64,000 nt of DNA, taken from a virus. Both the position numbers and the translations under genes were made by a program. Every line of letters begins with the position of its first letter. Positions within the stretch are counted from its first letter, which is position 1. The stretch covers positions 1-64,000 of IMG/VR virus record IMGVR_UViG_3300025534_000004; one strand, 5' to 3'. Of the stretch, positions 12,356-28,249 are shown piece by piece. The notes beneath the pieces were generated by a model. It made no database searches. It had not been told where the DNA came from and saw only the letters and a program-made list of their open reading frames with translations.

Positions 12356-12431
12356 TGGAGGGCCGGGTGGGGTTCGAACCCACGACCTTGGGATTAAGAG
12401 TCCCCTGCTCAACCAACTGAGCTTCCGGCCC
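12356..12431 (-). tRNA. tRNA-Lys(CUU)
   Basis: Full cloverleaf, GGGCCGG/CCGGCCC acceptor stem, loop CTCTTAA, encoded CCA. Confidence 0.95.
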
Positions 12432-12441
12432 ATAGACGCGC

Positions 12442-12468
12442 AAAACCCCGCAGCCATCGGCTGCGGGG
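12442..12468 (-). terminator. Attenuator terminator of the tRNA-Lys operon
   Basis: CCCCGCAGCC-GAT-GGCTGCGGGG-TTTT just upstream of tRNA-Lys. Confidence 0.85.
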
Positions 12469-12495
12469 CCGCGAAGGACCGGCAGGGGATGGCTG

Positions 12496-12540
12496 TCAGA
12501 TCAGGCGCGTCAGGCGCTTTCGTTTCGACGTGCTGCTCAT
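12496..12540 (-). CDS. Putative Lys-sensing leader peptide MSSTSKRKRLTRLI
   Basis: 14-aa uORF with AAA and AAG codons between promoter and terminator. Confidence 0.75.
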   Translation of the reverse strand: MSSTSKRKRLTRLI

Positions 12541-12545
12541 GTCCG

Positions 12546-12576
12546 TATTTATAGCCGAACCGGAAATAAAGGTCAA
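12546..12576 (-). promoter_or_regulatory. Sigma70-type promoter overlapping a TAAATA box
   Basis: TTGACC-17 bp-TATAAA(TA). Confidence 0.8.
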
Positions 12577-12594
12577 TAACCGTGTTTTTCTGGT

Positions 12595-13710
12595 TCAGAC
12601 CGGGAAGCGGACCTCGCACAGCGTCCCACCGGATGGGTTGGGCACGATGCGCAGGTTGCCCTCGATCTGGTTGACGAAGCCACGGACAATACGGAGCCCA
12701 AGACCCGTTCCAGTGGGCGGCGCGGTCGTCTTGATGCCAACTCCATCATCAGCGATGCCGAGAACATACTCGTCCCCGTCCCGCCGGAAGGTGATGCGCA
12801 CCGTGCCTGCTCGATCCTCGGGAAAGGCGTATTTGAGGCTGTTCGTAACCATTTCGTTGACAATGAGGCCAATGGGAGCGGCACGCTTGAGCGGGATGAG
12901 ATGGCTCTCGACTTCTGCAATGGCCGTAACCGGGCGCACGCCAATGGTCGCCGTCAGGTCCTCGGCGAGCCCCCGCAGGAATTCTTCGCTGTTGATGACG
13001 CTCCCGAGGGAGGTCCCCTCGACCTTGGTACCATCGAGACGGCCTTGGACGGCCGCCATGGCCGCAACCCGCGCTTCGACGCTCGTCAGGGCATCCCGTA
13101 CTTCGGGATTGCTCGCCATTGCCGCCTGCCATCCGATTGTGGCCGCGAGGCGCTGCAAGTCATTGCGGAACCGGTGCGCCGTATCGCGGAGGAGAAGTAC
13201 CTTTTCAGCTTCCGACTTCTGCGCCCGTGTCATATTCGCGCGCAGTTCGCCCATGATCTTATGCAGGCTTTCAACCAGAAAAACGCCGAAGCAGTTGGTG
13301 GCGATGAATACAGAAACCCCGATCCAATGACTCTTGTCCACGGGATACAAAGAGCCATACGGCGGAACAAGCAGCCAGAAATACAAAAAAGTAGCCAAAA
13401 AAGTCGCCCAATATCCCGTCTGCTGGGCAAGGAAGAATGCCGATATGATTACCGCCGGGGCAAACATCGTCAGCGCATAGCCGTTGAAGTCCCCGACCAT
13501 GAAGTGTCGCACAACTGCTGCTGTGACAACGAGGATGGTCGAAATCCCATAGCGGAGTGCAGTAGGAAGTCGCCGGGTACTCTCCAAAAACTTCGACAAT
13601 CGCAGAATCATCAGCGTCCCTGAGGCGGCCCGTGCCGTGAGCGTCCCTGAGGCGGCCCGTGCCGTGAGCGTCCCTAAGGCGGCCCGTGCTATGCTATCAC
13701 GGAATCGCAA
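12595..13710 (-). CDS. Membrane sensor histidine kinase (HisKA_2/HWE-like, DUF4118-like TM input)
   Basis: H-box AHRFRNDLQ, N-box NEMVTNSLKYAF, G1 DDGVG, G2 GTGLGL; 4 TM helices; start uncertain. Confidence 0.9.
   Translation of the reverse strand: MRFRDSIARAALGTLTARAASGTLTARAASGTLMILRLSKFLESTRRLPTALRYGISTILVVTAAVVRHFMVGDFNGYALTMFAPAVIISAFFLAQQTGYWATFLATFLYFWLLVPPYGSLYPVDKSHWIGVSVFIATNCFGVFLVESLHKIMGELRANMTRAQKSEAEKVLLLRDTAHRFRNDLQRLAATIGWQAAMASNPEVRDALTSVEARVAAMAAVQGRLDGTKVEGTSLGSVINSEEFLRGLAEDLTATIGVRPVTAIAEVESHLIPLKRAAPIGLIVNEMVTNSLKYAFPEDRAGTVRITFRRDGDEYVLGIADDGVGIKTTAPPTGTGLGLRIVRGFVNQIEGNLRIVPNPSGGTLCEVRFPV
13613..13689. repeat. 27-bp tandem repeat, ~2.9 copies
   Basis: AGCGTCCCTGAGGCGGCCCGTGCCGTG x2 plus a partial third copy. 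Confidence 0.9.
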
Positions 13711-13753
13711 GGTATCCCACCCCTTTTGATCACCGTTTCGTTACATAAAGCGG

Positions 13754-13784
13754 TTGACGCCATGCGGAGTTCCTATGCTAAATA
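13754..13784 (+). promoter_or_regulatory. Promoter of the GluRS-tRNA operon
   Basis: TTGACG-19 bp-TAAATA, same spacing as the tRNA-Lys promoter. Confidence 0.7.
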
Positions 13785-13793
13785 GGTACGATC

Positions 13794-13859
13794 ATGTGCC
13801 AGTTTGCTTTCATCATTATCGCCCGACCGGAACCGCAGGAACCCACCCCCTCGCGGTGA
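13794..13859 (+). CDS. Putative Pro/Glu-sensing leader peptide MCQFAFIIIARPEPQEPTPSR
   Basis: 21-aa uORF containing CCG GAA CCG CAG GAA CCC ACC CCC. Confidence 0.75.
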   Translation: MCQFAFIIIARPEPQEPTPSR

Positions 13860-13932
13860 CGCGCTCGTGCGCGGTCGCCGCAAGACGGCGACCGACGGTT
13901 CTCTAGGCCAATCCCGGCCTTCGATATGACCC

Positions 13933-13958
13933 AAGGCCCGCCGTCCAGCGGGCCTTTT
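13933..13958 (+). terminator. Attenuator terminator upstream of the GluRS-like gene
   Basis: AAGGCCCGC-CGTCCA-GCGGGCCTT-TT. Confidence 0.85.
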
Positions 13959-13984
13959 GCATTTCAACCCAGAGAACCAGACCC

Positions 13985-14881
13985 ATGACCACCGCCCACA
14001 CCACCCGCATCGCTCCCTCCCCGACCGGCCTGTTCCATATCGGCAGTGCCCGGACGGCCCTGTTCAACTGGCTGATCGCCCGCGCGACGGGCGGCCGGTT
14101 CCTGCTGCGGATCGACGACACCGACAATGCCCGGAACGACGAGAGGGCCGTACAGGTGATCGACGACGCGCTGGCTTGGCTCGGCCTCGACCACGACATG
14201 CGCGTGCGCCAGTCCGACCGCCTCGACCTCTACCGCAACTTGGCAGCCGATCTTGTCCGCGCCGGTCTTGCACGGATGGACGGCACGGCCGTGCGGTTCG
14301 CGCCGAAGGTCATTGCGGAGGGTTGGTACGACACCATCGCAGGCAGGATCGCGATCACGGACAATGATCGCAAGGCCATTGACGGCCTTGTGCTGCTGCG
14401 GTCGGACGGAATGCCGACCTACCATCTCGCCTCGACCGTGGACGACATGGACCTTGGTGTAACTTGGATTGTCCGGGGCACCGATCACCTGTCGAACACC
14501 GCCAAGCATGTCGTGCTCTGGGAGGCGCTGGCCTCGCTGGACTGGTCCGGCCATGGACGCGGCCTGCCGCTGTTCACCCATGTCGGCCTCATCACGCAGA
14601 ACGGCAAGAAAGTCTCGAAGCGGGATGGCTCCGCGTCGCTGCTCAGCTACCGCGACGACGGCATCTGTGCCGACGCGATGTTCAACTGGCTGCTGCGCCT
14701 CGGCTGGGGTCCGACGGTGGACGACAGGACGACGCGGACCATTACGCGGGACCGGGCGCTCGCCTTGTTCCTCGACGGCGGCAAGATGCGCTCGTCGCCC
14801 GCGAATATGGACATGGCGCTGCTGGCCTCGCTGGATCGCAAATACAAGGGCGCCATCGAGAGGGCCGCACGGGCCGCATAG
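13985..14881 (+). CDS. Glutamyl-tRNA synthetase, catalytic domain only (GluRS/Glu-Q-RS-like)
   Basis: RIAPSPTG..HIGSARTALFNW, LLRIDDTD, PTYHLA..VDD, RG.DH..NT, KKVSKRDG; 298 aa. Confidence 0.92.
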   Translation: MTTAHTTRIAPSPTGLFHIGSARTALFNWLIARATGGRFLLRIDDTDNARNDERAVQVIDDALAWLGLDHDMRVRQSDRLDLYRNLAADLVRAGLARMDGTAVRFAPKVIAEGWYDTIAGRIAITDNDRKAIDGLVLLRSDGMPTYHLASTVDDMDLGVTWIVRGTDHLSNTAKHVVLWEALASLDWSGHGRGLPLFTHVGLITQNGKKVSKRDGSASLLSYRDDGICADAMFNWLLRLGWGPTVDDRTTRTITRDRALALFLDGGKMRSSPANMDMALLASLDRKYKGAIERAARAA

Positions 14882-14890
14882 GTTTCCTGT

Positions 14891-14965
14891 CTGGACGTAG
14901 CGCAGCGGTAGCGTGCTCGCCTCGGATGCGAGAGGTCGCGGGTTCGATCCCCGCCGTCCAGACCA
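14891..14965 (+). tRNA. tRNA-Pro(CGG)
   Basis: Cloverleaf, C1-G72, loop CTCGGAT, CCA. Confidence 0.9.
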
Positions 14966-14968
14966 TTC

Positions 14969-15044
14969 GCCTCATTCGTCTAGTGGTTCAGGACACTGCG
15001 CTTTCAATGCGGAAACACCGGTTCGAATCCGGTATGGGGCACCA
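14969..15044 (+). tRNA. tRNA-Glu(UUC)
   Basis: Cloverleaf, loop CTTTCAA, short variable loop, CCA. Confidence 0.9.
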
Positions 15045-15061
15045 AGTTCATTGCCGCTTAA

Positions 15062-15133
15062 CAGAGCGTGGCCCAGCGGTAGGGCGCCTCCTCGGGAAGG
15101 AGGAAGTCGGTGGTTCGATCCCACCCGCTCTGA
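15062..15133 (+). tRNA. tRNA-Pro(GGG)
   Basis: Cloverleaf, loop TCGGGAA, no encoded CCA, abuts the next tRNA. Confidence 0.85.
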
Positions 15134-15208
15134 CGGGGTGTGGCCGAGTGGCAAGGCGCCTGCTTTGGGAGCAGGAGATCGAAGGTTCGATTCCTTCCAC
15201 CCCGACCA
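15134..15208 (+). tRNA. tRNA-Pro(UGG)
   Basis: Cloverleaf, loop TTTGGGA, CCA. Confidence 0.95.
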
Positions 15209-15299
15209 TATCTCCATTGTGTCGGGAGAACGACCACACTGCGCACGGCTAAATATCGCCATCCATGCTCAACGAACCAGTAATTTGGAGCGTCGCGCC

Positions 15300-18200
15300 G
15301 TGATCCTCGTCAAATCCATTGCATTCCGTGGTGCCATCAACGTCAAGTACAGGATTGCGGACACCTCCCCGCCTGTTTGGGTGACGCCCGAGGGCCTGCT
15401 CGGCACGGCGCACAGCGGTGATACCGTCGGCTTCCAACTCGTCGCCGACAGCGCGAACCTCATCACCGACTACCGGGTGATCTCCGGCGAGCTTCCGGCC
15501 TACCTCACCCTTACATCGACCGGACTGCTCACCGGGACCGTGCCGGAGGAGATTGAGAGCGAGACCACCTTCGAGATCACGGTGCGCGTCACCGACAACT
15601 ATGGGCAGTATGCCGACCGCAGCTTCTCGGTCGTGGTGGCTCCGCCGTTGCCGCTGGCACCCATCTGGCAAACGCCGTCTAACCTCGGCAGCGTGCCCGC
15701 GCTCACGCCGATCAACATTGGCCTGCTGGCCGAAGCCGATCCGAGCGCCACAATCGTGTCCTATACCATCGCACCCTATTCCGGCGCTCTCCCGGTCGGA
15801 CTGACGCTCGACCCGGTCACGGGCGCCCTGTCCGGCACTCCGAATTATGTCGGCACCAATACCACCTACTTCTTCGTGCTGCGGGTCACCGATTCGAATG
15901 GCCGCTTCACGGACCGCTCCTTCCGCCTCGCGGTGACCTATGTCAACACACCGCCGAAGTTCATCACGCCAACCGGGCTGATCACCGATCTCGAAGGCGG
16001 GGAAAGCGCCAACGTCCTCCTGAACGCCACGGACGACAAGGGCATCAAGCACTGGCGCGTCCTCACCGGAGCACTGCCGGACGGACTGACCCTGTCGAAT
16101 GCTGGGTTCATCATGGGTACCGTCGCTTCGGTAACGGAAACCACCGTTTACGACTTCACCGTGGAGATCGAGGACGCCGAAGGTCTGACCGCGCAGCGGG
16201 ACTTCTCGATCAAGGTATGGGCGCCGAACCAGCCTCCGGTGTTTCTGACGCCGGAGGGCAGCCTCGGGACCTTCGATGAAGAATCGAAGATCAATATCAG
16301 CCTGTCCGTGGCGGATGATCGCAACCAAATCGCCAAAGTCGAGGTGGTCGGTGGGGATTTCCCTGCCGAATTGAACATGAGACCGGAAGGCACCATCGTT
16401 GGCACGCTCCCAGCGGTCGAGGAGGACACCACATACACCTTCACGCTTCGCGTTACCGACCTCGGCAACCGCGAGAACAAGAACAAGCTCTACAGTGACC
16501 GGACCTTCTCCCTGACGGTCCGCAATGTCGAGAACATGGCTCCGGTCATCACGACTCCGGCCGGAAGCCTAGGAACATTTGCGGAAAACTCCACCATCCT
16601 TGTGCATCTGGAAGCGACGGATGACCGCGATGGCACCTATGTCACATGGAGCATCGCGCCGGGATCGAGCCTGCCGGACGGGCTCACGCTCACCAGCGAC
16701 GGCACCCTGAAAGGTACCGCGCCGGAGGTCATGGAGGACACGACCTACGAGTTCACCCTGCGGGTGTCCGACCATGGTGATGGCATCAACGATCCTCTGT
16801 TCACGGATCGCACCTTCTCCATCACGGTGACGGACGTGAACACTCCACCGGTTCTGGAAGGCCCGAGCAACCTTGGGAAATACTGGACCGGGGACGTTGT
16901 CGAGGTGCAGCTTTCGGCGCAGGATGACAAGGCCATCACCGAATGGGAGGTCATCGGCGGGGAACTCCCGCCGGGCTTCGTCCTGACCACCAGCGGCGTG
17001 ATCAGCGGCACGGTGCCGCCACTGGACGAGATCACCGACTACAGCTTCGAAATCCGCGTGAGCGACGCCGAGGGGCTGACGGCATCGGCCACCTATACGA
17101 TGCGCCTGATGTCGGAGGAAGCCACACTCACCAACGCAGCGCCCGTCATCACCACTCCCGCCGGTTCGCTGGGAATCTTCGACGAGCGTACCGCCATCTC
17201 GTACACTTTGGCTGCCACTGACGATTATGATGAGCCGGTCTGGGAGGTCACGGGCGGTGACCTGCCGGAGGGCCTCAATCTGTCCCCCGAGGGCGTGATT
17301 TCCGGCACGACGCCGGACGTGATGGAGGACACGACCTATGAGTTCACCGTCCGGGCAAGCGATTCGCGCGGCCTCTACACGGAGCGCAGCTTCTCGATGA
17401 TCGTAGCGGATGTGAATACGCCGCCGGAAATCACCACCACCGAACTGCCGCCGGTCGTCGAAGGCAATTCCGTGTCGTTCCAGCTTGAAGGCACCGACGA
17501 CAAGGCCATCACGGAGTGGAGCATCGTCTCCGGCGCCCTGCCGAGTGGCTTGTCCATCTCCGCCTCCGGCCTGATCTCGGGTACGGCGCCAGAGGTCGAT
17601 GAGGATACGAGCTACGCCTTCACGGTGCAAGCCAGCGATGCGGGCGGCCTGACCGCAACCATGGAACTGAGCCTGACCGTGCGGAGCCGCGAGCCGTACT
17701 TCGTCACGCCGTCGGGTCTGCTCGGGACCTTTGAGAAGCGCGAGGAAATCGCCGTCGCCGTCGAGGCAAGGGATGATGTCGGGATCACGCTTTGGGAAGC
17801 CGTCGATCTGCCCGACTTCCTCACCCTACAGCCGAACGGTGTCCTTACCGGCATCGCTCCGGATGTTCTCACGGATACGGTCTACCCGATTACCCTGTAC
17901 ATTGAGGACGCGGACGGCCACTCGGCGACGCGTGAGTTCAGCATCGCAATCAAGTATGTGAACACGCCGCCCGTTATCACCTCGTCTGCCGACCTCGGTG
18001 CCTATGTGCAGAACGCTCCGGTCAGCATTCAACTGGAAGGCACGGACGATATCGGCATCGACGAATGGGCCTTGGAGGACAGTGACCTGCCGGAGGGCCT
18101 CAGCCTGACCCCGACCGGGCTCATCAGCGGCACCACGCCCAGCGTAACCGAGGATACGCGTTTCTATTTCACGGTACGCGCGACCGACACCGGAGGGCTC

Positions 18201-26027: not shown

Positions 26028-28249
<2,222 letters not shown>

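Follow-up and report, generated by a model that had tools for sequence, protein, structure and literature searches.

How might a large bacteriophage govern the supply of its own translation components? The question is raised by a locus in the IMG/VR virus record IMGVR_UViG_3300025534_000004, whose first 64,000 bases (the window, to which all positions refer unless another record is named) were analysed out of 147.7 kb. Here a gene of the glutamyl-tRNA synthetase (GluRS) family is followed by four tRNA genes and preceded by a leader that contains a promoter-like site, a short upstream open reading frame (uORF) with several proline and glutamate codons, and an intrinsic terminator. A preliminary description of the locus had seen in it an attenuator whose leader peptide matches the whole tRNA set, and had taken it, together with a second leader, as a sign of a general phage system of "tRNA surveillance and resupply". 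We find this interpretation partly supported. The leader reads best as a ribosome-mediated, glutamate-sensing leader-peptide transcription attenuator that gates the truncated GluRS-family gene and the four tRNAs, a reading to which we assign a probability of roughly 55%. The evidence for the function of the leader is computational throughout.

Architecture of the leader

The unit has the layout of a classical attenuator (Table 1): a short open reading frame (ORF) lies between a promoter-like site and the first structural gene, as it also does in four homologous leaders described below, and a GC-rich stem followed by UUUUGCAUUU forms an intrinsic terminator upstream of that gene. The GluRS start codon lies a mere 28 nt past the terminator. 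Because the terminator stands between the sole promoter-like site and the operon, and the gene upstream of the leader is divergent, the terminator-bearing leader is the only visible route to expression of the GluRS-like gene and the tRNAs.

The arrangement TTGAC-N20-TAAATA is found at two sites only in the 147.7-kb record, ahead of this leader and ahead of a leader for tRNA-Lys genes, which bears out the earlier remark that the two leaders share a promoter geometry. TAAATA alone has 41 copies in the record, mainly upstream of genes, and behaves like a promoter element of the phage. The uORF begins so close to it as to be nearly leaderless. Such starts seem to be normal in this phage, because the large-terminase ORF begins 5 nt past a TAAATA (27833-27844, minus strand) and from its own residue 6 can be aligned to the terminase of the related Agrobacterium phage Atu_ph07, because a 474-codon ORF at genome position 103856 has the same TAAATA-to-start geometry, and because the ATG of the Lys uORF also lies 5 nt past its TAAATA. 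In alphaproteobacteria leaderless mRNAs are common and well translated, and in Caulobacter, where a leader peptide is found ahead of trpS, they are frequent and are translated no less well than mRNAs with a leader (PMC4117421).

Codons 12-19 of the uORF are CCG GAA CCG CAG GAA CCC ACC CCC, so that six of eight specify Pro or Glu, just as first described; measured against the phage's own codon use, and with position allowed for, this has a p of ~7e-4. The GAA codons occupy 13830-13832 and 13839-13841, the Pro codons begin at 13827, 13833, 13842 and 13848, and the stop codon UGA (13857-13859) lies inside helix A.

Table 1. Positions of the leader elements, the operon genes, the tRNA-Lys leader and the uORFs of homologous leaders (positions are those of the window)
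Feature	Position	Strand	Details
Promoter-like site	13754-13784	+	TTGACG 13754-13759, 19 nt, TAAATA 13779-13784
Leader uORF	13794-13859	+	21 codons, MCQFAFIIIARPEPQEPTPSR, then stop; start 9 nt past TAAATA, nearly leaderless
Helix P0	13832-13857	+	13832-13839 with 13849-13851 and 13853-13857; -9.6 kcal/mol alone
Helix A (segments 1 and 2)	13853-13864/13869-13881	+	12 bp, one bulge; -21.9 kcal/mol
Helix B (segments 2 and 3)	13872-13880/13886-13894	+	9-bp hairpin; -17.2 kcal/mol
Antiterminator	13884-13945	+	GACGGCG 13884-13890 with CGCCGUC 13939-13945; duplex -15.4 kcal/mol
Possible added helix of the antiterminator	13916-13921/13933-13938		GGCCUU with AAGGCC
Intrinsic terminator	13933-13966	+	9-bp stem 13933-13941/13948-13956, 6-nt loop, then UUUUGCAUUU; -17.2 kcal/mol
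Truncated GluRS-family gene	13985-14881	+	298 aa, catalytic domain only
tRNA-Pro(CGG)	14891-14965	+	Starts 9 nt past the GluRS stop
tRNA-Glu(UUC)	14969-15044	+	ARAGORN
tRNA-Pro(GGG)	15062-15134	+	ARAGORN
tRNA-Pro(UGG)	15134-15208	+	ARAGORN
Leader of tRNA-Lys(CUU) and tRNA-Lys(UUU)	12432-12576	-	TTGACC-N-TATAAATA; uORF MSSTSKRKRLTRLI, then stop; 10-bp terminator and UUUU
uORF of leader L231			MKPTECEPREEARLR, then stop
uORF of leader L232			MRMPSHDTQREREQT, then stop
uORF of leader L234			MRMPSRPVQQEREQTSSR, then stop
uORF of leader L238			MFMPSRTIIQEREQRSSR, then stop

Alternative folds and the proposed switch

The pairings named in the preliminary description, those of helix A, helix B, the antiterminator and the terminator, are all confirmed. 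To these must be added helix P0, which had been missed: it pairs ACCGCAGG, a segment that lies between the two GAA codons and overlaps both, with the region of the uORF stop, and it belongs to the minimum-energy fold of the untranslated leader, which consists of P0, hairpin B and the terminator. In the models it is P0 that would make the untranslated state "off", and hairpin B would act as an anti-antiterminator.

Without a ribosome the off state is calculated at -73.6 kcal/mol and the state with helix A and the antiterminator at -63.0 kcal/mol. When a ribosome is masked at either GAA codon of the full-length leader the values become -53.8 (on) and -56.2 kcal/mol (off), so that the two states are predicted to be nearly equal in energy once a stalled ribosome has been placed on the uORF. 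With the ribosome at either GAA and RNA polymerase just before the 3' arm of the terminator, the best fold is helix A plus the antiterminator. A ribosome at the UGA covers segment 1; hairpin B (-17.2 kcal/mol) is then able to form as soon as it has been made, and the terminator follows. The relay under ribosome position that had been suggested for this leader is thus reproduced by the masked folds.

These pairings are stronger than randomised sequence would lead one to expect. The leader as a whole folds with z = -4.5, and the energy of helix A was attained by 15 of 5000 shuffles in the window and by 10 of 5000 in L231, the homologous leader that also bears a terminator. For the antiterminator, 122 of 5000 randomised terminator hairpins reached the energy seen in the window and 100 of 5000 that in L231, a shuffle p of ~0.02 in each of these lineages. 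Masked and constrained folds, duplex energies in five leaders and the shuffles together describe, by computation, an antiterminator that excludes the terminator and is chosen by the position of the ribosome.

We propose the following sequence of events. Transcription would start a few bases before the AUG of the uORF, which would then be translated. If the leader remains untranslated, or if the ribosome reaches the UGA at 13857, segment 1 would be held in P0 or covered; segments 2 and 3 would then pair as hairpin B, the terminator would form and the polymerase would stop at about 13957-13966, leaving the operon off. A ribosome awaiting Glu-tRNA at the GAA at 13830 or 13839 would instead melt P0, with its front edge reaching almost to segment 1, whose first base lies 14 nt past the second GAA. 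The ribosome footprint usually extends ~12-13 nt beyond the A-site codon, and with this spacing a ribosome at a Glu codon would therefore melt P0 and yet halt before segment 1. Helix A could now form and capture the 5' arm of B, whose 3' arm, thereby released, would pair with the 5' arm of the terminator, and with the terminator blocked the polymerase would read through into the GluRS gene and the tRNAs. The sequence shows the elements, their energies and their conservation; the start of transcription, translation of the uORF, the stalling and the response to charged tRNA-Glu are what we infer. The design is that of a classical attenuator lengthened by one anti-antiterminator step.

Conservation of the leader

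Leaders homologous to that of the window precede four close GluRS homologues (66-70% amino acid identity) on other metagenome contigs, namely L231, L232 (with L233), L234 and L238. Together with the window they make five distinct leaders in three independent lineages; seven other loci had no leader or too little upstream DNA. Each homologous leader has a short ATG-initiated uORF, and what is conserved across the lineages is its placement relative to the RNA helices and not the sequence of the peptide. All five uORFs contain two to four Glu codons, of which one lies 14 nt (15 nt in L232) upstream of the conserved segment GCGGUGAC, and the stop codon falls within GCGGUGAC in four of the five, the TAG of L232 coming three codons earlier. 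The TGACGCC...ATGCTA portion of the promoter-like region of the window leader recurs in the L232, L234 and L238 leaders, in which a CGCGAGC/GCUCGCG hairpin is the counterpart of P0.

In all five leaders the pairing of hairpin B is complete (100%), and two pairs show compensatory changes (U-A to A-U and C-G to G-U), as counted in the block from stop codon to B only, because a whole-leader MAFFT alignment misaligned L231. The 8-bp core of helix A, GCGGUGAC/GUCGCCGC, is identical in L231, the only other leader with a U-tract terminator, which there ends in UUUUUUGUUG. In the window leader and L231 alike, B can pair through its 3' arm with the terminator's 5' arm, though in a different register and with different sequences (GGCGACCU with AGGUCGCU in L231). 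Conservation of the antiterminator, which had been named as a test of the idea, is thus seen in principle in the other terminator-bearing lineage, and of the covariation expected for the helices, that of B was found, whereas helix A is conserved in L231 without compensatory change.

The leader unit accompanies the GluRS gene in unrelated genomic contexts, and it appears to be a conserved, undescribed leader RNA. Rfam searches at gathering and permissive thresholds of the window and the four homologous loci returned tRNAs only and no match to a leader family. Relatives sought in IMG/VR by protein and alignment were at best 54% identical and none had the leader, which was not found in more distant phages carrying the same GluRS gene either; two IMG/VR scans with a DNA pattern of the stop region and hairpin B gave chance matches in coding regions with no GluRS gene nearby. 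A regular-expression search of all retrieved homologue loci and of the whole phage record yielded no additional copy, and the scans of genomes and metagenomes gave, among the matches listed, only canonical GluRS or distant relatives.

Two observations concern the surroundings of the homologues. At the loci of three close homologues (L006 3442-3945, L235 3-284 and L237 2678-2959) a small ORF with a faint EF-Ts-like match stands directly before the GluRS gene, in the place of the leader. On L231 (1-111 and 7159-8936), flagellar export genes (FliM/N, FlhB-like and FliR-like) and a class Ib aminoacyl-tRNA synthetase lie near the GluRS gene, a context that looks cellular rather than viral.

Glutamate versus proline

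The leader codons cognate to the regulated function are those for Glu, which are in frame and at the fixed spacing of 14-15 nt. Over the uORFs of the three lineages, GAR triplets are distributed 8:1:1 among frames 0, 1 and 2 (binomial p ~0.003), and both Glu codons in the uORF of the window are GAA, the less used of the two in this phage (32%). The CC dinucleotides, on the other hand, are spread evenly over the frames (8:7:5 overall, 4:4:3 in the window uORF), the homologous uORFs have one or two Pro codons only, and at all four homologous loci no tRNA genes occur within 3-4 kb. Because Glu is in frame, CC is even and the homologous loci are free of tRNA genes, the sequences indicate that the leader is matched to the GluRS gene and to Glu, while a match to the tRNA-Pro set is not demonstrable. 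Base composition in a C-rich stretch may account for the apparent correspondence with three tRNA-Pro genes. Of the proposed codon-matched attenuator the Glu half is consequently supported, its codons being kept in all five leaders, in the reading frame and at a constant spacing from helix A, whereas neither Pro codons as a specific signal nor the claimed match to the whole tRNA set finds support. A secondary role of the four Pro codons as sensors in this phage is conceivable.

The truncated GluRS and the tRNA genes

All members of the operon are present as originally listed. The GluRS-like ORF matches the class I Glu/Gln catalytic domain only (PF00749, 2.5e-56). It scores 247.4 bits against the NCBIfam gltX model TIGR00464, below the cut-off of 289.95 and with a match that stops at profile position 315 of 470, and 151-154 bits against the GluQRS models TIGR03838 and NF004315, whose cut-offs are 250-277. 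The alignment to GluRS structures (470-490 aa) ends at about residue 316-337, from which it follows that the anticodon-binding domain is missing. The match to YadB (1nzj) has an E-value of 7.7e-19, compared with 5e-51 for a GluRS structure. By these comparisons the protein has the domain architecture of GluQRS, but a sequence closer to GluRS. The HIGH and KMSKS positions are invariant among 40 homologues. All four tRNAs are ARAGORN calls and score 61-71 bits with the Rfam tRNA model.

Truncated GluRS genes of this kind (~290 aa, without an anticodon-binding domain) are widespread in large viral contigs. The nearest viral members of the family directly adjoin two to four tRNA-Glu genes, and some closer metagenome homologues adjoin tRNA-Glu and tRNA-Asp; loci L087-L091, L006 and L237 exemplify the truncated gene next to tRNA-Glu or tRNA-Glu/tRNA-Asp. 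No match at E <= 1e-70 was found in 401 sampled alphaproteobacterial genomes, and the gene is absent from Atu_ph07 and from Sinorhizobium phage Phosso. A 50% identical "glutamate--tRNA ligase family protein" without a leader is encoded on plasmid pVL1_2 of Methylobacterium indicum (L412), a 128-kb circular record with many small hypothetical genes and RusA, which may be a phage-plasmid.

Alternative explanations

Several results weigh against a Glu-sensing attenuator. The uORF has no Shine-Dalgarno sequence, and that of the window contains only two Glu codons; trpL likewise has two sensing codons only. With the ribosome at the stop codon and the 3' arm of the terminator still unmade, the B state (-31.5 kcal/mol) is slightly less stable than the antiterminator state (-34.0 kcal/mol), and the off decision would therefore rely on B forming first and staying trapped. 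No compensatory change in helix A was found among the five leaders, and in L232, L234 and L238 its core is weakened by a shared, uncompensated U-to-A change. The same three leaders have no U-tract terminator, so either their output differs or the mechanism is not uniform, and in L231 helix A, together with the CUUUCCUU that comes after it, is classed as terminator-like in its own right. Finally, the covariation statistics are thin because there are only three independent lineages.

The leader could alternatively be a structured 5' region in which the short ORF is incidental and the terminator is either set for fixed low read-through or governed by something other than uORF translation. Candidate factors are uncharged tRNA, an antiterminator protein of the phage or the host, and the GluRS-like protein, which would bind the leader of its own gene. 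It is hairpin B, and not the peptide, that is most conserved; in L232, L234 and L238, where the terminator is missing, the uORF is wholly buried in a stable fold; and the uORF is preceded by no Shine-Dalgarno sequence. Such an arrangement, however, leaves unexplained why Glu codons are in frame at a fixed distance and why the stop lies inside segment 1 in four of five leaders. There is moreover no T-box or other Rfam match, and no tRNA mimic is apparent, because the loop of hairpin B is unconserved. We regard this explanation, which survives best among the alternatives, as unlikely.

The promoter, small ORF and terminator could also constitute an independent gene for a micropeptide or small RNA, the GluRS gene and tRNAs being expressed by leaky read-through without any sensing. 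The unit is indeed complete in itself, and a similar one stands before the tRNA-Lys genes. Yet the lineages differ in the sequence of the peptide but keep its placement with respect to the helices, the unit moves with the GluRS gene across unrelated contexts, and its mutually exclusive pairings beat the shuffled controls, all of which makes an independent gene improbable. Chance alone is hardly credible as the source of an ORF, hairpins and a terminator-like hairpin in a GC-rich intergenic region: open frames and GC hairpins are common in DNA of 61% GC, a simple terminator scan gave 8 sites versus 4.1 expected in 5 kb, and the Pro codons can be put down to base composition, but the leader is kept before homologous genes in three lineages with compensatory changes, its fold departs from expectation by the z given above, and the promoter geometry occurs only at the two leaders.

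The tRNA-Lys leader and other tRNA loci

The second leader of the phage precedes tRNA-Lys(CUU) and tRNA-Lys(UUU). Its uORF has 14 codons, among them AAA and AAG, and in masked folds its terminator forms only with a ribosome at the stop codon. The rare promoter geometry, cognate codons and a ribosome-dependent fold switch predicted by modelling suggest that the Lys leader fits the pattern of the Glu leader.

The pattern does not extend to other tRNA loci. The tRNA-Cys locus of the phage has a promoter-like site and a plain leader with no uORF or terminator, the tRNA-Thr genes directly follow a gene and tRNA-Met directly follows TAAATA, neither with a uORF-plus-terminator leader. In Atu_ph07, eleven tRNA loci (one of them without a tRNA on re-scanning with ARAGORN) showed no cognate-codon uORF-plus-terminator leader, and at several the promoter abuts the tRNA, including tRNA-Lys(CUU) with TTGACA-N17-TATAAATA. 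A general phage system across tRNA loci, as had been suggested, finds no support in the Cys, Thr, Met and Atu_ph07 loci, and the more distant phages with the GluRS gene lack the leader as well. A further idea, which we hold only tentatively and consider doubtful, is a decoding-surveillance circuit of this phage in which the nearly leaderless Glu (perhaps also Pro) and Lys leaders sense decoding failure and switch on phage tRNAs and an anticodon-independent GluRS. Such failure could be starvation, the action of host kinases on GluRS, or anticodon nucleases and other tRNA-targeting defences.

Comparison with known systems

Among aminoacyl-tRNA synthetase genes, pheST is known to be preceded by a classical attenuator, and others have been reported before trpS and leuS (PMC1262725). 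With E. coli pheST and its pheM leader peptide, trpS and leuS of Streptomyces and trpS of Caulobacter the phage leader shares a leader ORF with cognate codons, alternative hairpins and an intrinsic terminator (PMC1262725, PMC4117421). It differs from them in being phage-encoded, in that the enzyme is a truncated GluRS-family protein, in having tRNA genes within the regulated transcript and a nearly leaderless uORF, and in a relay that comprises not four segments but five or six (P0, A, B, antiterminator, terminator).

Like the proteobacterial trp, his, thr, leu and phe leaders, the phage leader would turn stalling at cognate codons into antitermination, and arrival of the ribosome at the stop into termination. 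Unlike those, it has no Rfam sequence or structure match, its cargo is translation machinery and not a biosynthetic pathway, and the extra hairpin B inverts one step of the relay. The T-box riboswitches of Firmicutes also control aminoacyl-tRNA synthetase genes by choosing between terminator and antiterminator according to tRNA charging, but uncharged tRNA is their direct ligand, and both a specifier loop and the T-box sequence are required, whereas the phage leader would sense through the ribosome. A T-box (RF00230) was sought and rejected: positions 12400-14050 gave no match even at E <= 10, nor did the four homologous loci at E <= 1. Atu_ph07, from the same phage lineage, has a tRNA-Lys(CUU) with the same type of promoter, but there neither a uORF nor a terminator intervenes between promoter and tRNA. 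A literature search found no report of a Glu-specific attenuator, of leader-peptide attenuation in a phage, or of such attenuation with tRNA cargo.

Genomic setting

The proteins of the window include a large terminase, tail sheath, tail tube and tail fibres. The large terminase is 56% identical to its counterparts in Atu_ph07 (490 kb) and Phosso (469 kb), and the window probably belongs to a jumbo myovirus that infects an alphaproteobacterium and is related to Atu_ph07. An identical GluRS-tRNA region lies at ~340 kb on a 484,642-base ENA metagenome contig (L001). Because the same region is on this 484.6-kb contig and the cultured relatives measure 470-490 kb, the 147.7-kb record is probably about one third of the phage genome.

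The gene that lies exactly between the Lys and the Glu tRNA leaders (12595-13500, minus strand) encodes a HisKA_2/HWE-type sensor histidine kinase, which carries a DUF4118 domain and shows a weak PhyK-like match. The start of this gene and the promoter of the Glu leader are 253 nt apart, and in that gap a 27-bp unit occurs in 2.9 copies that are 98% identical (13613-13689); this repeat could be an operator array for the divergent promoters. Downstream of the tRNAs, at 15250-15303 on the plus strand, TAAATA is followed after 9 nt by a uORF of 12 codons (MLNEPVIWSVAP, then stop), whose TGA overlaps the GTG start (15300) of a 1308-aa protein with Ig repeats (He_PIG). The overlap suggests that this nearly leaderless uORF is translationally coupled to the He_PIG protein gene.

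Implications

A widespread family of phage GluRS proteins without the anticodon-binding domain, encoded beside tRNA-Glu genes, also emerges from the analysis. Leader-peptide attenuation is a textbook mechanism of bacteria; if the leader works as proposed, a jumbo phage would monitor the translation state of its host and adjust its own supply of tRNAs and synthetase. The surveillance circuit, if it were true, would be an inducible counter-measure, not a constitutive supply of tRNAs. The finding, if correct, would be relevant to the question of what tRNAs and synthetases do for large phages, and to the ways in which such phages might counter host defences directed at tRNA.

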